Source of the DNA: Dictyostelium discoideum | Lineage: Eukaryota | NCBI GenBank assembly: GCA_000004695.1 | Contig: CM000153.2 | Span: 5,344,001 to 5,408,000 of the forward strand | Direction of reading: 5' to 3' | Length of the DNA stretch: 64,000 nucleotides | In this document: positions 1 to 47,276 of the stretch, one piece after another | Position numbering within the stretch: the stretch's first letter is position 1 | Layout: each line of letters starts with the position of its first letter | Made by a program: the position numbers and the translations under genes | Notes under the pieces: model-generated | The model's database searches: none | Seen by the model: only the letters and a program-made list of their open reading frames with translations | Told to the model about the DNA's origin: nothing

Positions 1-1932
1 TCATCGACAATGTTATTTAAATCATCATTTATTACATTTAGAAATTGTGAAATTTCATTCAATATTCAAAATAGTGGTGATTTTTTAACAGTGATCGATA
101 GTGGTGTCACTAAATTTATATCAACAAATATAACAAATAATCGAATTGAAATCAATGGTGGTTATTTAGTTAGAGTTAGTGATGGACCGATGGTTAGTTT
201 TATTAATAGTTTAATTAGTTCAACCAATTCAATAACGGGTTTAATTGGTTTATTTATCAATTCAATGGTATCATTTGATAGTAGTATTTTTATAAATAAT
301 TCAAATTCTTATCTTGGTGGTGTAACATATTTCGATAGAAGTTCAAGATATTATGAATTAACAAGATGTTCATTTCAATTGAATTCAGCTTCAGTTGGTG
401 GTGTATTTTATACTGAAAATTTTATTTTTAATTTTTATCAAATTTTAAAAAATAATAAATTTTATCCATATAATAATTTCACTTTAAATAAAGCAATCTA
501 TGGTGATTTTGTTGCATCATCACCAACTCTAATTAAAATTGAATTACCAGATTTAAATTCAAGTTTAACAAAACCAACAATTAAAATTCAAGATGATTAT
601 TTAAATTTAGTTTCTGATAAAATTTATTTTGCAAATATTATAATTACAACTGTTTATTTTAATAATTCAAATTCAAATGAAGAAGCACAACAACAACAAC
701 AACAACAAAATAAAACAAAATATGAACAAATTTTAATTAAAGGTGGTTTAGGTACATTTAATTATAATTTTAATGCACCAATAAGTGTTAAATATTTTGT
801 AATTAATGTAACGATTATAGATGATGTAAATGAATTTCTTTCAATTGAAATTATAAAAAATAAAACTATTTGTAAAGATTATCAATTATATAATAGTGAA
901 AATGGTGAATGTACAACATGTCAAGTTGGATTTTATAATTATCAAGGTTCATGTATAGCTTGTAATGAAAATTTAATTTGTATGGAAGGTGATATTCATT
1001 CAATTGATGGTTATTATTTAATTAATAAAATTAATTTTAATGATAATCAAACAAATGAAATTCATTATCAAGATAGTAGTGATGATGATAGTAGTGGTGA
1101 TAATGGTATTGGAAAATTAAAAGTTTATGAATGTCCAATTGGAATTTGTTTTGAAAATAATAAATGTCCAAATGATTTATATTATGGTATACTATGTTCA
1201 AGATGTATTAATGATACAGCGATTTGGGATAGAGATATTGATAGTTCATCAAATGGAAAGAATTTAATTAGATGTTGTAAAGAATTTAAACCAATTTTAT
1301 TAATACCTTTTATAATATTTTTAATTTTATTTGGACTTTTCATTTCATTATTTAAATATAATTTAACAACATTAATAATACCAATGATTTTAATGATTCA
1401 AATTAATTCAATAATTTTCATTTCATATCCTGCTATTTACATATTACCATTATCAAGATTCTCATTCGACTTTTTTAATGATATTTGTAGTTTTAGAATG
1501 GAATATATTTGGAAATCATTTTTATCAATGATATCAATGGTATTTGTATTTTTAATTGGTTGTTCAAATTTATCATTTATAACATTAACTACAATACCAT
1601 TTTTAAAATCATTTTCACAAAAAAGTAATATCATTAAAAATAATATCGAATTTCATTATAAATATTATTATGATAATTTTAATTTTAAAAGAAATTTAAA
1701 ATCAAAATTTAATATAATCATTTTATTATTTCAACCATTTTTATTCAATTTAATTTCAATGATAATTTCAAAAGAAATTAATTCAATTAATTATTTATTA
1801 ATTGATATTTCAATTTTATTTAAAAAATCATCATCACATTACTTTTTTTTTTGTTTTTATTTAATTTTATTAATTTTAATATTTTTAATTTTAATAATTT
1901 TAATTTTAAATTGTTTTTTTTATAAAATAATT

Positions 1933-1986
<54 letters not shown>

Positions 1987-2451
1987 TATAAGAAAAAATT
2001 TTATTTTATTTTTAAAATTATTTCAATTGGTTCAACTTATTTATTATTTAATAATAATAAAAGATCAATTGAATATAAAGATCAATTTAAATGGTGGGAT
2101 TTTATTATAATTTTAAAATCAATAATAATTATAATAATTTCAATTTCAATGTTATATAATTATAAATATTATCTTTTAGTATTATCAACTATTCAATTCA
2201 TTTTCTCTTATTTACAATTTGTAATTTATCCACAAAAGAAATCTTTTAATTATAAATTAAATAATTTATTAAATTTATTACAATTAATAATTTTAGTAAC
2301 TGTAGATTCAAATATTATTATTAAAAATTTATCACTTTATAATATTGGTTTATTTATCACAATCTTTACTTCATTTTCTTTAATTTTTTCTATAATTTAT
2401 TATAATTATTTTTTAAAAATTAATAAAAATAATAAAAATAAAAAAAATTAA
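1..2451 (+). CDS. 5'-partial gene for a large membrane protein: N-terminal parallel beta-helix / Chlamydia-Pmp-type repeat region, Cys-rich module, C-terminal multi-pass (~7-9 TM) domain. Stop at 2449-2451.
   Basis: The 813-aa ORF stays open to base 1, so the gene continues upstream of the window. It has a GGVFY motif, NS-x-x-N beta-helix-like repeats, and a CxxC-rich block (CTTCQVGFYNYQGSCIACNENLIC…CPIGICFENNKCP…CSRCINDT). The C-terminal ~350 aa is strongly hydrophobic and periodic. The protein is clearly paralogous to the downstream gene at 2878-8299. Confidence 0.6.
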
Positions 2452-2714
2452 TATTAAATAATTATTATTATTATTATTCATATAAAAAGTTTTTTTTTTT
2501 ATTTTTTTTTTTTTTTTTTCGTAGTTGTATTCTTTTTTTAATATAATAAATTTATTTTGATCAGAAAAAATTTATTAAATTAAAAAAAATTTTTTTTTTT
2601 TTTTTTTTAAAAAAAATAATACAATTTCGGAAAAAAAAAATGATTGGTTTGTGATGTGTGGAAATGAAAACCCAAATAATCAAGTGACGTGTTCAAAAAA
2701 AATTAAATGTTACT

Positions 2715-2746
<32 letters not shown>

Positions 2747-3719: not shown

Positions 3720-6197
3720 TAATTATAATAATAATAAATCAAATCTTATAATACCAAATATAATAAATTTAAATATAAATTTAAAAAATTCAACATTTTT
3801 TTTAAATTATATTAATTTACATTATTTTAATGAAAAAGTTATAAATATAACATATGGTATAAATACATTTCAATTTTTAATTGAAAATAGTAATTTACAT
3901 TGTGTAAATCCAAAATTACCATATTGTAATATTTTATTTAATAAATTAAATCAAAGTTTAATCATTAATGATGATAATGAAGCAATGATTTTAATAAAAA
4001 ATTCAAATATTATTAAATTTGATTTTTATTTTAATATTATTGAAATGAATGTAGAGAATTCAAATTTATATTTTACAAGTTTATATTCATTAATTAGTCA
4101 AAATTTAACATTTTCAAAATCATATTTTAATAATACATTAATTTATTTGGTTGAATATCAAGCAATAAATGTTTCAATTGATCATTGTAAAATGATTTAT
4201 GATTTTTCAAATAATATTCAAGTGTTTTTAATGGGAACAGGGAATATATTAACAATTTCAAATTCACAAATGGAAAGTACAGGTGAATTCTTTTCATCCT
4301 ATATCACTTGTAAGAATGCAAAAGTTCAATTGATGAATGTACAATTTATAAATTGGTATTTACTTAGACCATTTATAAATCTTAGTTTAAATTCAACATT
4401 AATTATGGAGAATGTTTTTGCAAGGAAAATGTATATACCAGCATTTATTGAAATTGGTAATAGTGAACTTATAATTGATACATTGGAAATTAGTGGTAAT
4501 AAATTGGTACTAATAATTATTGAAGGTCCATCAGTGATTTCAATTAGTTATTTGACATTAAAATATCAATCAGAACAAGGTTCACCAATTATGATGAATT
4601 TTCCAGGTGGTGGATTTGGAATGAAAACTATAATCAATATCACTTCTTCAAATTTTATAAATATCGATGGTTTCACATTAAAAGATGCTCAATTAACTTT
4701 ATTTAACGTTTCAATGCATAGTGATAGTATAAATAGTTTATTTGCATTATCATCAAGTCAACTATTTTCAAGTAAAAGTACATTTAGTAGTAGTTTAATC
4801 GTTGGTAGTTATTTTTTATTTTCATTAGATTTCACATCACTAGTTGATTTAGATCGTTGTATTCTTACAAATTCATCATCACTTTTTCAAGCAAATTCAT
4901 TTTCAAATATTACAATTACAAATTCATTAATTGATTCAGTATTCTCAAGATCGGTTGCAATTGAAATTCAAGGCGGTTCATCATTTACAATGATAAATTC
5001 AATTATTAATAAAACTTATGTTGTTAGTCAAAGTTTTATATATAGTTCTTCAAATTCTGATATCATAATTCATAAATGTAATTTCTTACAATTTGTAATG
5101 GGTTTAAAACCATTGGGTAATTTTTTAAATAGTAATGTTTTCATTGATCATTTGTTATTATATCAATCATTTTTTCAAAATCAAATTTTCGTTGCAACTT
5201 CATCAATTATGTATATTAGTGATACAAAGTTATTTAATAATTCAATATATGGTAGTGAAATGTTTTTATTAAATAATCAATCTTATCTATTAATGAATAA
5301 TTCTTTAATTTATGGTAATTCAATTTCAGTTTGTTTTTCAAGTTCTCATTCATTGGCAAATATTCATAATGTTACATTTCAAAATAATTCAGGTATTTTC
5401 TTATATAGTGTTGATAGTAAAATTAGTTTATCATTATTAGAATTTTCAAAGAATCCAATTTCATCATTATATTATTTATTTTATTTTACAAATTCATCTG
5501 CAACCTTTCAACAATTAACAATCGATTCAAATTATTTTATGGGTAGTGTAATTGAAGCTCATTTCTCTGAAATTTTATTTACAAATTTAATATTTTCATT
5601 AAATCAAAATGTTGATAATTTATTAAAGGATAGAGAATCACCATCATTAGTTTTCACTCATTCAAATGTTAAAATTATAAATTCAACAATTAATTCAAAT
5701 TCACAATGGTCTTTAGATTTAATTTGGTCACAAAAATCAATTTTAATAATTAAAAATAGTTTATTCAATTCAAATTCAATACCATATAATGGTTATTTAA
5801 TTAGATTAGAAACTTGTCATCTTTCTTTAGATCATTGTTTAATATTTGGTACTCAATCAATTGAAGGTACAATTGGTTCATTTAATTCAATAATTAATGC
5901 TACAAATAATTTATTCTTACAAAATAATGCTCTTGAAATGGGTGGTTGTTTTTTTCTTTCAAATTCTCAAATTTTATCATTTTCAAATAATTCATTTTTA
6001 AATAATACTGCTTCAATTGGTGCTGCAATCTTTACAAATGGCACTTTAATTAATAATACTTTAATTATTAAATCAAATAAATTTTTAAATAATAATGCAT
6101 ATGAATATGGTGATAATATTGGTTCATGTAAGTTTTTTATTATTATTATTATTATTTTTTATTTTTCATTTTTAATTTAAAATATATATTAATCTAT

Positions 6198-6248
<51 letters not shown>

Positions 6249-8299
6249 AATAGATCCAACTTGGATTAGTGTTGAATATCCAGAAGATTTTGATTCAACA
6301 ATAAATTATATTAGATTATATGATAATTATTCAAATTTAGTTGCAGATAATTTTTATACAGCAAATATAATAATTTATGATTCAAGAGTTAATGAAAATA
6401 TAAGTTTAACAACATTTATTAGAGGTGGTAGTGGTGATTTTAATTATTCATTTAATGTATTTTCAATTTATGATTTTCAAATTTCAATTAATATTATTGC
6501 AGATGGATTTAATATTAATTATCTTAAATATAAAAGTCCACCAAAATGTTTAAATTTTCAAACTAGTACATTATCTGATGGTTGTATATTTTGTCCAATT
6601 AATCAAGCTGCAACACCTGAAAAAGGTGAATGTACAAAATGTGATACAAATAAATTGGTTTGTTTAAATAATGATGTTCATACATTACAAGATTATTTTA
6701 TGATTAATAATGATGTTTCAAAAGTTTATCAATGTCCATTTGGTTTATGTTCTGGTCAAAATAATTGTAATAGTAATTTATTTTTATTATCAAGTTTACA
6801 AAGTCCATTATGTTCAAGGTGTTTAAATGATTATAATAATGAAAATGATGATGAAAATCAATTTAAATATAATAATAATGAAAATAGTGGTAGTAGTGGT
6901 AATAGTAATAATAATGAAAATAGTAATAGTAATAGTGATAGTAATAGTAATAGTAATAGTAATAGTAATAGTAATAGTAATAGTAATAGTAATAGTAATA
7001 GTAATAGTAATAGTAATAGTAATAGTAATAGTAATGAAAATAATTATAATGGTGGTGATGATGATGATGATGAAAAAAATATTAATAATTATAAACCATC
7101 AAAATCAAAGAATGGATTATATTGTTGTAATAAATTTCAACCATTATTATTAATACCATTTATTTTTTGGATTTTATTTTTTGGATTATTTTTATCATTA
7201 TTTAAAAATGTTATAACTGGTACAATGATTGGTCAAATTATATTATTTTTACAATTAAATTCAATTGTATTTTATCCATTACCAAATATTTATGGTTTAC
7301 AATTATTTAGAATGTCAATTGATTATTTTGATCGATATTGTTTATTTAAATTAGATTATATTGAAAAGATTTCAATTTCATTAATCTCAATATTTTTAAT
7401 TTATTTAATTGGTATTTCAGATGTAACATCAAGATTAATTTTATCAATTTTAAAAAGATCTTTAAAATTAAAGAAACTGATTCCATTGGTAATTGAAAAA
7501 CAACTTCGAAAATTTGAATATTATAAAATGAATAGAATTAATACAAGATTAAAATCAAATTGGAATATTTATTTAATGTTAATTCAACCATTATTTCATT
7601 GTTTAATATCATTAATTGTACCAAAATCAATTGGTTCAACAACTTATTTATCAATTGATTTAACAATACTATTCATTTCAACACCAATTCAAATTGTTTT
7701 CTTTTTTTCAAGTATTGTAATTTTATTTTTATTAGGTATAATCATTCCATTGATTATATTTGTNNNNNNNNNNNNNNNNNNNNNNNNNNNNNNNNNNNNN
7801 NNNNNNNNNNNNNNNNNNNNNNNNNNNNNNNNNNNNNNNNNNNNNNNNNNNNNNNNNNNNNNNAAATCATTATAGAAAAGAATTTAGATGGTGGGATTTA
7901 ATATTTGTTTTTAAAACTATACTATTCACTTCACTATCTGTAACTTTATTGTATAATCCACCCGTTTATTTTTCAGCTTTAGTAATTTGTCAAATTGTTT
8001 ACTCTTATTCACAATTTGCATTCTCACCACAAAGAAAAGATCATATGTATAGAGTTGAAAATTTATTAAATCTATTTCAACTTTCAATATTAATCGTAAT
8101 TAATACTTCAATAATTAGAAATTTATCTTTTAATTTAATTGGTATTTTATTTACTATTGTAATTTTCTCTTGTTCTTTAATAACAATAATTTATAAATTA
8201 TTCTTTTATAAAAAATTAAAAACTATTAAAAATCATAGACTTTTAAATTTAATTATAAATGTTGATGATAATAAAAAAAAAACAAATAAAAATAAATAA
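2878..8299 (+). CDS. Tandem paralog of the upstream gene: Pmp-repeat (GGAI / FxxN) beta-helix ectodomain, Cys-rich module and multi-pass TM domain. Predicted exons 2878-6127 and 6254-8299, interrupted by two 100-N gaps; the true start codon is uncertain because of the gap at 2955-3054.
   Basis: An 1100-aa ORF carries Pmp-repeat motifs (IGAAIFTNGT, MGGCFFLSNS, NNSFLNNTA, SNKFLNNNA). A GTAAGT donor lies at 6128 and a poly-A…TAG acceptor at 6252-6253, with an in-frame junction. The downstream frame (PTWISVEYPEDF…CPFGLCSGQNNC…CSRCLNDY…LYCCNKFQPLLLIPFIFWILFFGLF) is colinear with the C-terminal half of gene 1-2451. The ORF after the second gap runs to a stop at 8297-8299. Confidence 0.55.
2955..3054. 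other. Assembly gap (100 N)
   Basis: Run of exactly 100 N characters. Confidence 0.99.
6935..7038 (+). repeat. (AGTAAT)n hexanucleotide microsatellite encoding an (SN)n tract within the CDS
   Basis: Perfect agtaat repeats, translated in frame as SNSNSN…. Confidence 0.9.
7764..7863. other. Assembly gap (100 N) inside gene
   Basis: Run of exactly 100 N characters. Confidence 0.99.
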
Positions 8300-38188: not shown

Positions 38189-39827
38189 TTAATTTTCTAA
38201 ATTATCAGATGGAATATTAATTAAATTTATTAATTTTAAACCAATACACCTAATTTTTTCAAATGATATATTTTCAGTTGTATTTATAAATAATTTCCAA
38301 ATTTTTTCAGAATGTTCATTAAAATTATTTGGATAAATAAAAGTTTTCTTTAATTTACATGGTGATTGTTTTGATGAAGATGATGATGATGAAGAAGATG
38401 ACGAAATTGATGGCGAAGATGGTGGTGAATCTAAATAATAACTATCAATTTCTTCTTCTTTTGTAATACATTCTTTTTCCTCTGTTGATATATCATCATC
38501 ATTATTATTATTTGTTGATGTTGTAATTATTGGTATAGTTGATATTGAATTTATTTGTAATGATGATGATGATGATGATGATGTTGTTGTTGTTGAAATT
38601 AATTGATAAGAATAATTTATAACTTTAAAACTAAAATCTTGAACTTTTACAATTAAAGTTGTTGCATATTTATTTTCAATATTTAACATTTCAATTGCTT
38701 TATCAAATAATGATTTCATTAAATCTTCTAAATCTTTTTCATCATATAATTCTTTACAATTTTTTTCTTTACTAATCATAGTTTTCTTTTTATTTATTCT
38801 AAATGATGATTTATTTGGAAAAATGGGTATTGCTAATGCATGTTTAAATAGTAACTCTCTTTGTTCAGGTAAAAGATAATAAAGTTCATATCTATGTTCA
38901 ATAATATCCGATACAAATTCTAGACCCAATGTTTTCAATAACTCTTGTCTAACTTTACCAATACCAGGTAATTTTTTAATTTGAATTGTTTTTATAAATT
39001 CTTGACTATATTGTTTATCTAAATAGAAATATCCATTTGGTTTATTAATTTCACTTGATATCTTTGATAATAATGGTGAACAAGATATACCCATACTACA
39101 TGTTAATGTTGTCTTTTCAAATATATCATTTTGTAATTGATTTGCAACATCAATACCTGTTAAATTTTCATTATCTTTTAAATATTCTGTTATATCAATA
39201 CATCCTTCATCTAATGATGGTGACTTTTTTAAAGAAAAAAAAAAAAAAAAAATAAAAATATTAATATTATTATTTTAAAATTTTAAAAAAATATATATAT
39301 ATACATACAACATAATTTTTATCAAATTTATATAAAATATTTCTAATTATTAAACTAACTTCTCTATATCTATCCATACGTGATGGTAAAATGATTAAAT
39401 GAGGACATAATTTCATTGCTAATAGGCCTGGTAAACCTGAACGTACACCATAGGCTCTTGCTGCATAATTTGAAGTTACTAACATATCAATTGAACCAAC
39501 TGCAACAGGATGACCAATTAATTCTTTATTATCCATTTCTTCAACATTTGCATAGAATGCATCCATATCTATATGAATGAATGTACGTGATTGATCGATT
39601 TTTGAGGTTAATTCTGTTAGATAACTATCAACTTTCTCTTGATATTCTTCAGTATCTGGTATTTCATTCAATTTACTTAAAATTCCTTCTATATATTCTC
39701 TTGTTCTTTTTGAATCCCTTTCTAATTTCTCTTGAAAATGTGTGCCAACTGAAAATTGTTTTAACATTGAATTTATTGATTCAATATCAACTTTTTCCAT
39801 ACCTGCTTTAAATTCTAATGAATTCAT
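38189..39827 (-). CDS. DNA polymerase kappa (Y-family, DinB-like). Exons 39827-39309 and 39223-38189; ~517 aa.
   Basis: IHIDMDAFYANVE (compare Pol kappa IVHVDMDCFFAAVE), DRYREVS…LYKFDKNYV…SLDEGCIDITEY (compare DKYRAVS…ILADYDPNF…SLDEAYLNITKH), and the helix-hairpin-helix region KKLPGIGKVRQELLKTLGL. A GTATGT donor lies at 39308 and the acceptor AG at 39225-39224; 519 + 1035 nt are both in frame. The C-terminus is Ser-rich and low-complexity. Confidence 0.85.
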
Positions 39828-40362: not shown

Positions 40363-40612
40363 AAAAAATTATAATGGTGGACGTTAGATAGAGTCAGACA
40401 GTCATAACAAAGGTGCTACCCTTTGTATGACACTTATAAACATGTTTGGATGTTCTTAAAGTTTTTTGATCATCATTAAGTTGTAATTTTATGTATTGAA
40501 TGATTCCGTAGAAAACATTCTATAGATAAGAATTACCTACTAATTGTCGAATTGGATACATTCACACTTTTTTTCAAAATACTGATCCCCTATAGAGTTT
40601 ATATTTGTGGGA
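40363..40612 (-). ncRNA. Candidate small ncRNA gene (copy 1): DUSE-like promoter element tCCCACAAat at 40612-40605 (minus), box C-like AUGAUGA and box D-like CUGA motifs, T6 run at the 3' end
   Basis: There is no ORF. The element is duplicated almost identically at 41806-42049. The CCCACAA heptamer matches the Dictyostelium upstream sequence element found ~60 nt upstream of ncRNA genes. The minus-strand transcript would end in TTTTTT (plus-strand A-run at 40363-40368). Confidence 0.35.
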
Positions 40613-41805
40613 TATAATAAAAAAAGTTGCTAAAAAAAATGGGAAAAAAAAAAAATTTAAAAAAAATGATTTATTTGAAAATTTTCTATATTTAGAATCA
40701 TAGGTTTGATGTAATAATAAACCCCCATGGGTATGCAAACATTACAATAAATTAAATAAAGAAAAAAAAAAAATATAAAAAAAAAAAGTTACTTTATTTC
40801 TATTTAAAAACACAAAATTTTTAATTGTCACCCATGCCAAATCCAATAATTAAAAAAAAAAAAAAAATAATTAAAAAAAAAATAAATCTTTTTAATTTTT
40901 TATTTTAGTTGTAACAAAATAAATAAATAAATAAATAAATAAATATATAAATATATAAATGACAAAAAAAAAAACATACATTTTATAAATTTCTTAACAT
41001 ACATTAATACTTTTAATTTCAAAAAAAAAAAAATAAAAAAAAAATACCAAATCGGGCAATCACACCCAGATTTTCCACTTACCCAACATCAGTAAGTATT
41101 ACAATATATAAACTAATTGTACCATAGGTTTTATTACTGACCAAATTATAATTTCAGAGTTAATTTTTTAAATTGTCATCAAATAGATCATTTAGCATTT
41201 TTTTACAATGACAATTTTGGAATTGTTGAAGGTGATGTATTATCAAACAAAAGAACAAAATTTCATCAATGGATTACTTGTCACCAACCAATCCAACTCC
41301 TTCTTCCATATACAGAGGAACCACAACAACTACAACACCCACCACAACCACCACAACCATTCCAAAAACCAGCTATTAAAATAGGTGCTAAAAAGCCAGC
41401 TGCCAATTGAACATATACACTTCAAATACATACATATATATACAAACACCAAAATATAAAAATACCAATGATAATTACAAGTTTAAGTATTTGCAATTTA
41501 TTGGTTTTAAATAAAAATAAAGATATTCAATGTTTGTAAAAATTCAAACCCTTCGTGTTTCAAAAACTTTTTTTCTTTTGTTTGATGAATTGCATCATAT
41601 TATATTGTTTAAACATCCAATTAAAAATATTTTACTTAAAAATACAATGTTCACATTGTGTTGAATTTAATAATAAATACGAAATAATGATCGATAATGA
41701 AGTTGTATTAAATACAAATCAAATATCTATTGATAAAAAAAAATGAAAATAAGAAAATAAAAAAAATAAAGAAACAATATGTTTATTTTAATTTTTTTTT
41801 TTTTT

Positions 41806-42049
41806 AAAAATTATAATGGTGGACTTTAGATAGTCAGACAGTCATAACAAAGGTGCTACCCTTTGTATGACACTTATAAACATGTTTGGATGTTCTTAAA
41901 GTTTTTGGTCATCATTAAGTTGTAATTTTATGTATTGAATGATTCCGTAGAAAACATTCTATAGATAAGAATTACCTACTAATTGTCGAATTGTATAATT
42001 ATACACTTTTTTTCAAAATACTAATTCCCTATAGTTTATATTTGTGGGA
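41806..42049 (-). ncRNA. Candidate small ncRNA gene (copy 2) with a conserved CCCACAA element (42049-42042 minus), AUGAUGA and CUGA motifs
   Basis: About 95% identical to 40363-40612 in the same orientation, 1437 bp away. The promoter-like motif, the C/D-like boxes and the terminal T-run are all conserved, while the flanking sequences diverge. Confidence 0.35.
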
Positions 42050-42739: not shown

Positions 42740-43344
42740 AATAAAACTCGTTAAAAATAAAGTTTTATTTTTAAAAATAAAAAAGAAATAGAAAAAGATA
42801 AAAAAAAAAAAAAAAATCGAAAAGTAAGATCACCAAAACAATCAAAACAACTACACCTTTTTTTTTTTTTTCTTTTTTTTTTTATTTTTTTTATTTTTTT
42901 GTTACAACAAATTTTTGTGAGAGTGTGCGTGTGTGTGTGTGTGTTTTTTTGTGGGTATAATAGTTTACTTTTTGATAATAAAACAATTGTTTTGTTTTTA
43001 ATCTAATTTTTTTTTTTTTTTTTTTTTTGTTAATTGATTGATCAATAATTATTGTGTTTTTTTATTATTTTATTTTATTTTATTTTTTTATAAAAATATT
43101 TTATTTTATTTTTAAAATAACTTTTACTTTCACAAATATCAATCATTTTCCAAAATTTTTCATACAAACCAAAAACAATAACAAATAATAGATATAAAAA
43201 ATAAATTAAAAATTTATAATGTATGTGTTTAATAAAAAATTTATTATATCATTTTTTCTTTTTTTTTTATAATTATAATTTCATTATTATCATCATATTA
43301 ATGTTAACAACGATTCAATGACAATAACAACCACACACCAACAC

Positions 43345-44099: not shown

Positions 44100-47000
44100 A
44101 TGATAAATAATAAAATTTTAATAGCAATATTAATTTTAATATTATTAATTAAATTATCAAATTCATTATGTATACCAATATTAGGTGGTATATGTATTTT
44201 GGAAGGACCATTATTACTTGATGTTAGTCAATTATTTTCAAGTCTTGATTTAAAAAGTAATCCATTATCAATTCTTGGATCAATAATAACGATAACTGGT
44301 AAATTAACATGTGATTCAACTATATCATTATTAGGTGGTACATTAGTATTACAAGGTTTAATTGAAATTAAAGCTGGATGTGTATTTAAAATTGGCAATG
44401 AAACTGTAATTGAAACTTCATCATCACTATTGTCAATGCCATTGTTATCAGTTGAATTTTTAAATTCAAATGGTAATTCATCATTAACATTTAAAAGTTC
44501 AAATAGTAATTCAGCATTGGATTTACAATTCTTTTCATTAAATGGTACAGAAACACCAAAATTTATATTTAATTCAAATAATGTTTCAATTTCAACATCG
44601 TTTTTACATTTACCAATTTCAAGAATTGGTAAAGCTATAGTTAATATGGGTAATAAAATTGGTAGTAAATTAGAGATTAGTAATGATTTTAAATTTGATA
44701 GTTTATTAATACAAAATTCAATCTCACAATTATTATTACCCGATCAAATCGATATTAGTACATTAACATTAACAAATGTTAACAATGTATTAGGTTTATC
44801 AAATTTATCACCAACAATTACAAATTTATATACTCAATTAAATTTAATACTTGATTCAACAAATATATCATTTAATAAAAAAGTTTTTTTAAAGTCAATA
44901 AATTCAATTTCAAGTAATTTAAATTTTTTAAATTCAAATATTATAATTGGTGTTAATAATGGTAATATAATAAATTCAATGATTCAATTTAATGGTAATG
45001 AAAATAATCAAATTTTAGATTTATTTGGTAATTTAAATTTAGTTTCAACAATTTCACCAATTATAAATTCAATTCAACAATTAGTTACAAGTTCAACCAA
45101 TAATAATAATAATGGTATAATTAGATTAAATAATGGTTTAATTAATTCAAATTTAATAATTGGTAATGATTCAAGTTTAATTTATAAATTAAATTGTCAA
45201 TTAATCGGTGGTACAATTGGTGGTACAATTAATTCAATTGGTGGTTTATTTTTACCAAATCAATTAAATTTATTAGAAAAATTAAATTTAAATTTAAAAA
45301 GTTTATTAATTGATTCTGGTCAAATTTTATTAAATAATTCAATTTTAAATATTAAAGATTCAATTGGTTTCAATAACAATGTAATTGGTACAATGAATTT
45401 AACAAATAGTTTATTAGAATTAGGTGGTAACATTTTTAATAATACTTCAAATTCATTTAAAGATTTATTATTAATAAATGTTAAATTATCAGCAAATAAT
45501 TTAATTTTAAATATTGCAAATAATATTATTCTACCAAATCGTATTTCATTAGGTATTGGTTCAACTTTACACTTTGTAAATGGTATTGAAAATGATTTAA
45601 AATTTCAAACAACTTTAGATTTAAATTTATTAAATTCAATTTTAAATACAAATTTTGTTTTTGTAATTTCAACATCATCTTTAATATTTTGTAATGGTCA
45701 ATCACCACCAACTATGATACAATTACATGGTAGTTCAACTTCAACCTATCAATTTATGTGTGATAATAATATGATTGTAATGAGATTAACCAATTGTTTT
45801 GGTGGTTATATTTGTCCTTCAAATGATCAATGTGTATCAAATGAATCACAATGTTCATCAATTGATGATCAATCGGCAGTATTACCAGCTTGTAATGTAA
45901 ATGAAATTCGTTGTTTATCAGGTTGTCATTCAAATATTGATTATTGTAATAATACTCAATGTATAAGTGAGGGTGGTACAATTGAATGTTTATCACCAAC
46001 CACTGCCAAAAGTTTAAAATATAATGGTTGTCCATTTAATTATTTTCAATGTGGTGATGGTTCTTGTCATTTAAATAAATTGGATTGTTGTGTTGTTGGT
46101 ATAAATTGTACTCAATCTTTATTGGTTTCAACATTTGTTAAACCAGAATTATCGTACTCTCCAATTCATACTTTAAAAGATATGAAAGTTCCAATCATTT
46201 CAAAATCGAAATCAACTGGAATTTTAGATATTTATGGTTACGTTTCAATGCCAAGTGGTTTCTTAACTATAAATTCACTAAGTAAATTAAAAATAACCTA
46301 TAAAGATGATTCTTATTTAGATTCAGTAAATGGTGATGAAATTTGGGGTATTGATTCAAATATATCTCAATATAGACAGTCTGCAATTAGTATGATATTC
46401 GATATTTCAATCGATACAATTCCAAATCCAATTTTTAATCATAATATAACATTTGAATTAAAAGTTAATAATCTTCAACTTTTAAATTTATCAAATTATT
46501 GTCTTTACTATATTAATACTACTCAAAATAAATGGAATTGTGAAACTAGTTCAACTATTTCAATATCTCCAAGAAATACTTTGTTAGTTACAACTCCTCA
46601 TTTCACTGATTTTGGTGTTTTACTTAATAATTATAAACCTCAAACAACTCGTCCACCTGCTGGTGGTGGTACTTGGACAAATCCAACATTTACAACAACT
46701 GGTACTACAACTGGTACTACTACTGCAACTACAACTGCAACTACTACTGCAACTACAACTGCAACTACAACTGCAACAGGTAGTTCAAATCCTACTACAA
46801 CAACAACTACTAATCAACAAACAACAACAACAACAATTTCTCAAACCACCAATGGAGGTGATGGATCATCAATTGATACAACAACTGGGGGATCATCAAA
46901 TCCTACTACTACTGGTACTACAACTGCAACAACTTCAGGTACTACAACTGCTACAACTACTGCTACAACTACTGCAACAACAACTGCAACAACAACTGCA

Positions 47001-47276
47001 ACAACAACTGCAACAACAACTGCAACAACAACTGCAACAACAACTGCAACAACAGGTGTAACATTAACAGAAGAACCAATATCAGATGAAGAAGATAGTA
47101 ATAAAAATACAATTATAATGTCAACAACAATATCAGGTGGTGCATTAGTTATAGCTGGTGTATCATCTTATTTTATAAATAAAAGAATAAGACATGGTCG
47201 TGTAGTATATTGGTGGAAACTTAGAAAACCACCTCCCTCTCAACTTGAATTAAGTACAACTACAACAAAAGTTTAA
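44100..47276 (+). CDS. Type I membrane glycoprotein (1058 aa): signal peptide, long N/L/S/I-rich repetitive ectodomain, Cys-rich module, mucin-like Thr/Ala 9-mer repeat stalk, single TM and a short basic cytoplasmic tail
   Basis: The signal peptide is MINNKILIAILILILLIKLSNSLC. The cysteine cluster (CPSNDQCVSNESQCSS…CLSGCHSNIDYCNNTQCISEGGTIECL…CPFNYFQCGDGSCHLNKLDCC) is EGF/TNFR-like. Two arrays of (TTATTTATT)n are encoded by actacaactgcaact 9-mers. The TM segment is IIMSTTISGGALVIAGVSSYFI, followed by KRIRHGR. Confidence 0.7.
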   Translation: MINNKILIAILILILLIKLSNSLCIPILGGICILEGPLLLDVSQLFSSLDLKSNPLSILGSIITITGKLTCDSTISLLGGTLVLQGLIEIKAGCVFKIGNETVIETSSSLLSMPLLSVEFLNSNGNSSLTFKSSNSNSALDLQFFSLNGTETPKFIFNSNNVSISTSFLHLPISRIGKAIVNMGNKIGSKLEISNDFKFDSLLIQNSISQLLLPDQIDISTLTLTNVNNVLGLSNLSPTITNLYTQLNLILDSTNISFNKKVFLKSINSISSNLNFLNSNIIIGVNNGNIINSMIQFNGNENNQILDLFGNLNLVSTISPIINSIQQLVTSSTNNNNNGIIRLNNGLINSNLIIGNDSSLIYKLNCQLIGGTIGGTINSIGGLFLPNQLNLLEKLNLNLKSLLIDSGQILLNNSILNIKDSIGFNNNVIGTMNLTNSLLELGGNIFNNTSNSFKDLLLINVKLSANNLILNIANNIILPNRISLGIGSTLHFVNGIENDLKFQTTLDLNLLNSILNTNFVFVISTSSLIFCNGQSPPTMIQLHGSSTSTYQFMCDNNMIVMRLTNCFGGYICPSNDQCVSNESQCSSIDDQSAVLPACNVNEIRCLSGCHSNIDYCNNTQCISEGGTIECLSPTTAKSLKYNGCPFNYFQCGDGSCHLNKLDCCVVGINCTQSLLVSTFVKPELSYSPIHTLKDMKVPIISKSKSTGILDIYGYVSMPSGFLTINSLSKLKITYKDDSYLDSVNGDEIWGIDSNISQYRQSAISMIFDISIDTIPNPIFNHNITFELKVNNLQLLNLSNYCLYYINTTQNKWNCETSSTISISPRNTLLVTTPHFTDFGVLLNNYKPQTTRPPAGGGTWTNPTFTTTGTTTGTTTATTTATTTATTTATTTATGSSNPTTTTTTNQQTTTTTISQTTNGGDGSSIDTTTGGSSNPTTTGTTTATTSGTTTATTTATTTATTTATTTATTTATTTATTTATTTATTGVTLTEEPISDEEDSNKNTIIMSTTISGGALVIAGVSSYFINKRIRHGRVVYWWKLRKPPPSQLELSTTTTKV
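46690..47050 (+). repeat. Two arrays of 9-bp coding repeats (ACTGCAACA/ACTACTGCA; T-T-A units) forming an O-glycosylation-type stalk
   Basis: Tandem repeats are visible in the nucleotide sequence. The opposite-strand low-complexity ORF 46612-47061 is an artefact of this repeat. Confidence 0.85.

Follow-up and report, generated by a model that had tools for sequence, protein, structure and literature searches.

A candidate duplicated box C/D RNA gene with an upstream promoter element and a possibly U8-like 5' end in Dictyostelium discoideum

The window analysed here is a stretch of 64,000 nucleotides (nt) of Dictyostelium discoideum DNA (assembly GCA_000004695.1, contig CM000153.2, positions 5,344,001 to 5,408,000). 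It contains two copies of one element, copy A (40363-40612) and copy B (41806-42049), placed in direct orientation. The minus strand of these copies very probably represents a duplicated gene for a conserved, structured noncoding RNA (ncRNA), promoted by the upstream sequence element of Dictyostelium (DUSE). This RNA is likely to be a long small nucleolar RNA (snoRNA) of the box C/D class and the non-guide type, transcribed from its own promoter and bearing a 5' extension of 74 nt. We propose more tentatively that its 5' end is U8-like and serves as a chaperone for the 5' end of the 26S ribosomal RNA (rRNA). The RNA family is absent from Rfam 15 and from the searchable literature, and it is conserved in five Dictyostelium species.

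The two copies were aligned by BLASTN with 94.2% identity over 258 nt, and a gapless repeat finder gave a spacing of 1439 (repeat family D18). They are the sole copies detected by nhmmer in the window, which is very AT-rich (GC content of 10-36% per kb). No open reading frame (ORF) of at least 25 amino acids was found inside the conserved block of either copy. A sequence-only reading of this DNA had described two direct copies, about 95% identical, 1.44 kb apart and devoid of ORF, and these values agree with it.

The syntenic loci were fetched from public assemblies via the neighbouring GTPase, whose ORF is 98% identical to a D. discoideum GNL3-like protein. In D. cf. discoideum, D. citrinum, D. 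dimigraforme and D. firmibasis, all the species of the D. discoideum group that were reached, the same IMS-type polymerase and GNL3 genes have the element upstream of them. There are two copies in each of three D. discoideum strains (the window, L003 and L018) and in one D. cf. discoideum locus (L019). The second D. cf. discoideum locus (L001), each of two D. citrinum strains (L006 and L020), D. dimigraforme (L007) and D. firmibasis (L005) have one copy. In D. purpureum (L002), whose contig reaches only about 1 kb upstream of the polymerase gene, no homologue was detected by nhmmer or by eye. None was found in P. violaceum (L004) either, where the synteny is broken.

Alignments were realized with 8 copies across the promoter, then with 13 copies, from the five species. 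The mean pairwise identity is 1.00 in the DUSE, 0.54 in the spacer that follows it and 0.93 in a block of ~172 nt, and it falls to 0.59 and 0.68 in the flanks. Within the block, 148 of 175 columns are invariant, and its 3' limit is the sequence GUCCAC. The conserved block, and with it the likely RNA, is shorter than the repeat (Table 1). The proposal of the earlier reading that selection acts on a minus-strand RNA is upheld by the 13 copies, in which the boxes are invariant and the pairing of the stems is kept while the spacer has diverged.

The promoter was examined for the pattern [AT]CCCA[CT]AA, expected some 60-65 bp upstream of where the RNA begins; in the literature the DUSE precedes Dictyostelium ncRNAs by about 63 bp (PMC3188802). 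Both copies contain the exact minus-strand match, TCCCACAA, that had been noticed from the sequence. The DUSE is invariant in the 8 promoter-aligned sequences, always at a distance of 60-63 nt from the conserved block, and it is also carried by the 5 further copies. All 13 copies from the five species possess the element; whether other copies carry it was a point that the sequence-only reading had proposed to check. The octamer occurs 9 times in the window for 9.4 expected, without enrichment; its count alone is uninformative, and its significance derives from its conservation across species and its fixed distance to the block. In the spacer, the motif TAYTTT is retained in 8/8 sequences and the remainder diverges, so that we infer a TATA box. 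With the DUSE at about -62 and the TATA-like element at about -30, transcription would initiate at or near GAC, and the true 5' end of the RNA is probably the G of this GAC, at position 40548.

The T-run noticed at the end of each repeat is present (T6 in copy A, T5 in copy B), but it lies beyond the conserved block and is absent in the L001, L007 and L005 orthologues; it is probably incidental, and a role as terminator is not supported. As the terminator of an RNA polymerase III gene (at least 4 T directly downstream), the run was rejected on the same ground. Because no T-run terminator is conserved, RNA polymerase II would be the enzyme that transcribes the gene. A third DUSE-like octamer, ACCCACAA, was observed on the minus strand at 42949-42956, about 900 bp past copy B. 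The sequence 60-120 nt downstream of it consists of A-runs followed by GGUGUAGUUGUUUUGAUUGUUUUGGUGAUCUUACUUUUCGA and a T-run, and contains neither a Class I motif nor an Rfam match; this octamer is probably due to chance.

Inside the RNA block, copies A and B are 97% identical (169/174). A small spliced protein-coding gene is located between them on the plus strand (~41040-41410), with an exon end ...CAG/GTAAGT near 41095 and a last exon that ends with ...AKKPAAN and a stop codon at 41410. Its annotated product, without Pfam domain, has 256 amino acids in L001 and 224 in L019. The L001 locus has no counterpart at the position of copy B, and the flanking DNA is contiguous there. Since this host gene and the contiguous flank persist in L001 without copy B, the pair is explained by a local gene duplication and not by two long terminal repeats (LTRs). 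The gene would have been duplicated locally in the D. discoideum lineage, with both copies still intact. The two copies of L019 (D. cf. discoideum GCA_054859205.1), at 4787-4959 and ~7231-7405, share a GAUC that follows box C, the sequence ACCUUAAG within hairpin 2 and a CUCUAUC tail, unlike the single copy of L001. These shared derived states suggest either a gene conversion between the paralogues or an independent duplication.

That the element is no RNA gene at all, and represents a pair of solo LTRs, a dispersed element or a conserved cis-regulatory DNA, is very improbable. Two direct copies do flank 1.2 kb, and a solo-LTR-like repeat had been offered as an alternative by the sequence-only reading. 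However, only two copies exist in 64 kb, the syntenic position of the relatives holds a single copy, and the host gene between the copies is also present where copy B is missing. On these grounds the LTR pair and the dispersed repeat were rejected. Moreover, conservation is specific to one strand and has the shape of a gene: the promoter element is invariant and stays at a fixed distance, and the changes in the stems keep the pairing.

The RNA was numbered on copy A, nt 1 being the U of UCGAC at position 40550 (Table 1). From 5' to 3', it would be composed of the 74-nt extension (a conserved 5' sequence and a hairpin), box C, two hairpins, box D and a tail ending in GUCCAC. The minimum free energy of the copy A RNA is -36.4 kcal/mol (z = -2.8). 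Both boxes, C (AUGAUGA, nt 75-81) and D (CUGA, nt 154-157), are invariant in 13/13 copies; they are separated by 72 nt in copy A, close to the 75 nt given by the earlier reading, which had placed them on the minus strand of both copies. Hairpin 1 is joined to box C by a linker (nt 54-74). As it is invariant in all the copies, covariation neither supports nor contradicts it. The outer stem of hairpin 2 is weakened in both L019 copies. In hairpin 3, 4 stem positions are variable and a standard pair is always kept (C-G to U-G twice, A-U to G-U and G-C to G-U). The pairs G80-C154, A81-U153 and C/U82-G152 could form the stem II of a kink-turn (K-turn), the single change observed there being compatible with a wobble. 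The tail after box D has 17 nt in copy A and 17-20 nt across the copies; its GUCCAC is invariant, its middle varies freely, and its GUC is able to pair with the 5' GAC. In the proposed structure, 99.5% of the cells are paired, with 5 one-sided changes that preserve a wobble and 1 double change; 8 of 500 column shuffles equal this result. A terminal stem between the 5' UUAGUAG and CUAUCUAA of the tail was ruled out, as the tail varies without compensation.

Table 1. Features of the duplicated element in the window. Nucleotide (nt) numbers are those of the predicted copy A RNA.
Feature	Coordinates	Strand	Basis or remark
DUSE TCCCACAA, copy A	40605..40612	-	exact match; invariant across species
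TATA-like TATTTTG, copy A	40575..40581	-	precedes the conserved block by about 25-31 nt
Predicted RNA, copy A, UCGAC...GUCCAC, 174 nt	40377..40550	-	cross-species conservation limits: 93% inside vs 54-68% outside
Putative U8/TtnuCD26-like 5' element, nt 7-28, AUUAGUAGGUAAUUCUUAUCUA	40523..40544	-	similarity and predicted pairing with rRNA of the large ribosomal subunit (LSU)
Hairpin 1 of the 5' extension, GAAUG-UUUUCUACGGAAU-CAUUC, nt 31-53	40498..40520	-	RNAalifold
Box C AUGAUGA, nt 75-81, copy A	40470..40476	-	invariant in 13/13 copies
Internal hairpin 2, nt 89-119	40432..40462	-	RNAalifold
Internal hairpin 3, GUCAUACAAAGG-GUAGCA-CCUUUGUUAUGAC, 12 bp, nt 120-150	40401..40431	-	pairing-preserving variants
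Box D CUGA, nt 154-157, copy A	40394..40397	-	invariant in 13/13 copies
3' tail ending in GUCCAC	40377..40393	-	conservation
T6 run downstream of copy A	40363..40368	-	probably incidental; absent in L001, L007 and L005 orthologues
DUSE TCCCACAA, copy B	42042..42049	-	exact match
TATA-like TATTTTG, copy B	42014..42020	-	motif position
Predicted RNA, copy B, 171 nt	41819..41989	-	conservation
Box C, copy B	41909..41915	-	motif position
Box D, copy B	41834..41837	-	motif position
T5 run downstream of copy B	41806..41810	-	motif position

Judged on the structure and motifs of the RNA itself, no antisense guide of at least 10 nt lies upstream of a box D or D', the segment upstream of box D being the 3' strand of the conserved 12-bp hairpin, and the RNA contains no second CUGA or UGAUGA and no D' box. 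Because this hairpin sequesters the stretch upstream of box D and a D' box is missing, the RNA is most likely no methylation guide; a processing or chaperone snoRNA of the U3/U8 type is more likely. Boxes C and D would fold into a K-turn recruiting Snu13, Nop56, Nop58 and fibrillarin, and the particle would be targeted to the nucleolus.

Rfam 15 gave no match in the window at the gathering thresholds and none in this region at E<=1. At E<=10, the 276-nt element displayed four weak matches (TtnuCD26, SNORD27, snR77 and TtnuHACA9) and none with the models of U3, U8, small nuclear RNAs (snRNAs), MRP, RNase P, the signal recognition particle (SRP) and DdR. Rfam 15 holds no family for this RNA, which the earlier reading had called a candidate novel ncRNA.

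A structured ncRNA of another class (snRNA-like, telomerase or other ribonucleoprotein), whose AUGAUGA and CUGA would be incidental or would belong to a K-turn for a different particle, seems improbable to us. The DUSE serves several ncRNA classes (PMC3188802), no stem I is evident, a conserved 3' tail of 17-20 nt is unusual among C/D snoRNAs, and the RNA matches no Rfam family. Against such a class, no variant of either box occurs in the 13 copies, the three pairs described above extend a stem II whose sole change is wobble-compatible, and no model of snRNA, MRP, RNase P or SRP was recovered. An Sm-class snRNA in particular was ruled out, as inspection of the conserved block revealed no Sm site (RAU3-6GR) and no snRNA model matched. 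The Sm-site-like motif that had been reported on the plus strand, AUAUUUGUGGGA, proved to be the reverse complement of the DUSE and is located outside the block.

Concerning the function of the putative long box C/D snoRNA, one of the four weak Rfam matches, that to TtnuCD26, proved informative. TtnuCD26 of Tetrahymena was proposed by Andersen and Nielsen as the first non-metazoan U8, from the complementarity of its 5' end to the 26S 5' end (PMC3273799). The 5' end of the Dictyostelium RNA aligns without gap with the TtnuCD26 consensus (21/24 identical positions), and the score of 36 is the best of the window, the background maximum being 28. The pairing with LSU rRNA was predicted by RNAduplex on the Rfam eukaryotic LSU consensus, taken via one of two non-Dictyostelium LSU fragments that a scan of viral contigs had yielded. 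Nt 7-28 of the Dictyostelium RNA pair with LSU consensus nt 12-32 (-14.3 kcal/mol). The corresponding predictions are nt 2-23 with LSU nt 12-32 for TtnuCD26 (-19.0 kcal/mol), nt 3-27 with LSU nt 11-32 for the Rfam U8 consensus (-16.0 kcal/mol) and nt 4-28 with LSU nt 11-32 for human U8 (-19.8 kcal/mol). The four 5' ends therefore have a common predicted LSU site and a common register. From these data, a role as U8-like chaperone for the 26S 5' end is a reasonable proposal that falls somewhat short of being the probable one, and an amoebozoan orthologue of U8 in the strict sense is a little more doubtful.

A scan of metagenomes for the 5' motif recovered a relative of TtnuCD26 in the contig Ga0075158_10015173 (L008:72-179, plus strand; 28.5 bits, E = 0.046), with a weak U8 match of 18 bits; the other matches were unrelated. 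This contig is AT-rich (27% GC) and probably comes from a ciliate, and the sequence represents an environmental homologue of the RNA proposed as ciliate U8.

Several results weigh against the U8-like snoRNA. No Rfam family reaches its own threshold: the match to TtnuCD26 covers only the 5' 30 nt, with 17.5 bits (E = 3.4) for a gathering score of 90, and the U8 family RF00096, whose gathering threshold is 41 bits, does not match the 276-nt element even at E<=10. In the alignment to the Rfam U8 consensus, 20 of 23 columns agree, with 2 gaps, and the score of 22 is equalled or exceeded at unrelated places of the window (24); the score with human U8 is 18, so that neither exceeds the background. 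The duplex with the LSU is marginal, being equalled by 78 of 2000 shuffles and by 2.9% of genomic 36-mers (p about 0.03-0.04), and it was computed on the Rfam eukaryote consensus and not on the Dictyostelium 26S. Its energy drops to -12.3 kcal/mol in D. citrinum and to -9.4 kcal/mol in D. dimigraforme and D. firmibasis. The duplex of the whole RNA with the LSU consensus is not significant and is dominated by loop-rich artefacts. Concerning the structure, no stem I directly flanks boxes C and D, the only candidates being the GAC/GUC pairing of the ends and a helix that would join nt 7-11 to nt 72-76. In two species the covarying pair nt 9/74 is altered at both positions; exceptions are A.C in D. 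citrinum and U.U in one of the L019 copies. As the species are closely related, covariation is weak. The support for the U8 pairing is only suggestive, and the resemblance of the 5' end to U8 is not proven.

Many of these points would suit a genuine box C/D snoRNA unrelated to U8, namely an orphan, a guide for another site of the pre-rRNA or for a snRNA, or an acetylation guide of the U13/snR4/snR45 type, whose likeness to TtnuCD26 would be a chance effect of AT-rich sequence. The high E value of TtnuCD26 in cmscan, the background-level similarity to genuine U8 and an LSU duplex of p about 0.03 that decays in the sister species all fit such an RNA, and nine orphan C/D RNAs are already described in D. 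discoideum (PMC8817022). We nevertheless consider it as less likely. The match with TtnuCD26 runs from end to end at the 5' termini of the two RNAs, and three U8-type sequences share the predicted LSU site and register. In addition, the 74-nt extension and the order of the domains resemble U8 and U3 and not a guide, and box D is preceded by a conserved hairpin, without D' box.

In the U8-like reading, nt 7-28 would pair with the region of the 26S rRNA 5' end in the precursor and would thereby aid the maturation of 5.8S and 26S, in parallel with the proposals made for vertebrate U8 and Tetrahymena TtnuCD26. Taken as a whole (promoter, layout, assembly into a snoRNP, U8-like function and duplication history), this scheme is on balance the explanation that we prefer.

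Animals need U8 for the maturation of the large-subunit rRNA, and the chaperoning of the 5.8S/LSU junction by U8 is disturbed in the SNORD118 leukoencephalopathy. No U8 counterpart is described in Dictyostelium, and the searchable literature contains no substantive link of U8 to this genus. The sequence of the RNA is nowhere printed in that literature, a scope that leaves dictyBase and the early surveys of Dictyostelium ncRNAs outside, so that it may have been detected under another name. If an amoebozoan U8 exists beside the ciliate TtnuCD26, the origin of U8 would move back to early eukaryotes: it would be an ancestral eukaryotic snoRNA lost by fungi, and not an invention of vertebrates or metazoans. 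A haploid, tractable amoeba with two linked gene copies, in which gene deletion is feasible, would then offer a model for the chaperoning of the 5.8S/LSU junction. Even without the link to U8, an uncurated and strongly conserved ncRNA gene deserves an annotation in Dictyostelium and an entry in Rfam.

Concerning the surroundings of the gene, the window contains the N-terminal exon of the IMS/DinB-type polymerase at 38189-39827 (minus strand) and a gene for a protein of 1058 amino acids at 44100-47276 (plus strand). In D. dimigraforme, the RNA gene (L007:2469-2752) overlaps the 3' end of an annotated model of 1123 amino acids (1-2730, minus strand), and the distance between the RNA gene and the polymerase gene is 5.4 kb vs 0.5 kb in D. 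discoideum. This layout suggests that the locus underwent a rearrangement or an insertion, or that the gene model is overlong.

Among the known systems, the guide snoRNAs of Dictyostelium (DdR, CD and OR) come from the same organism and have boxes C and D; they are short, with antisense elements beside D or D', and none of their Rfam models matches the duplicated RNA. The snoRNA tables of the Diesend 2022 supplement do not contain the core sequence strings of this RNA. The DUSE-dependent Class I and Class II RNAs and the snRNA genes share the upstream element and its distance with the present gene. The Class I RNAs, however, have 50-60 nt, a CCUUACAG motif and a terminal stem of 5 bp, features which are all missing here. 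U3 (Dictyostelium D2 RNA) is also a long box C/D processing snoRNA, independently transcribed and with a 5' extension, and the GAC start and UCUAUAG-like string superficially recall its GAC box and box A. An identity with U3 was nevertheless ruled out: no U3 family matches at E<=10, a single UGAUGA is present, boxes B and C' are missing, and the U3 published for D. discoideum is another RNA, of 210 nt (GenBank V00190; PMC2784804).

TtnuCD26 (RF02302) shares 21/24 nt at the extreme 5' end (AUCAGUAGGUAAUCCUUACCUAUA vs AUUAGUAGGUAAUUCUUAUCUAUA, Dictyostelium first), boxes C and D and the predicted LSU target. Its length of 98-108 nt and its box C placed directly after the 5' element differ from the Dictyostelium RNA, and the remainder cannot be aligned. 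U8 (SNORD118; RF00096), called vertebrate-specific in a 2020 review (PMC7277114), has ~135 nt vs ~172 nt for the Dictyostelium RNA, which carries the 17-20-nt tail after box D and lacks the long GGAG/CUCC stem II. The tail CUCUAUCUAA resembles CUCCUAUCUGAU at the 3' end of U8, but this likeness was judged to be due to chance, as no matching GGAG strand is present. On the other hand, the Dictyostelium RNA would be, like U8, a long box C/D RNA with its own promoter and a 5' extension before box C, and its AUCAGUUAGGUUAAUCCUUACCU aligns with AUUAG-UAGG-UAAUUCUUAUCU of the U8 consensus. They also have in common the predicted LSU site (consensus nt 11/12-32) with its register, and the order of the U8 consensus structure, namely 5' element, hairpin, box C, two hairpins and box D.

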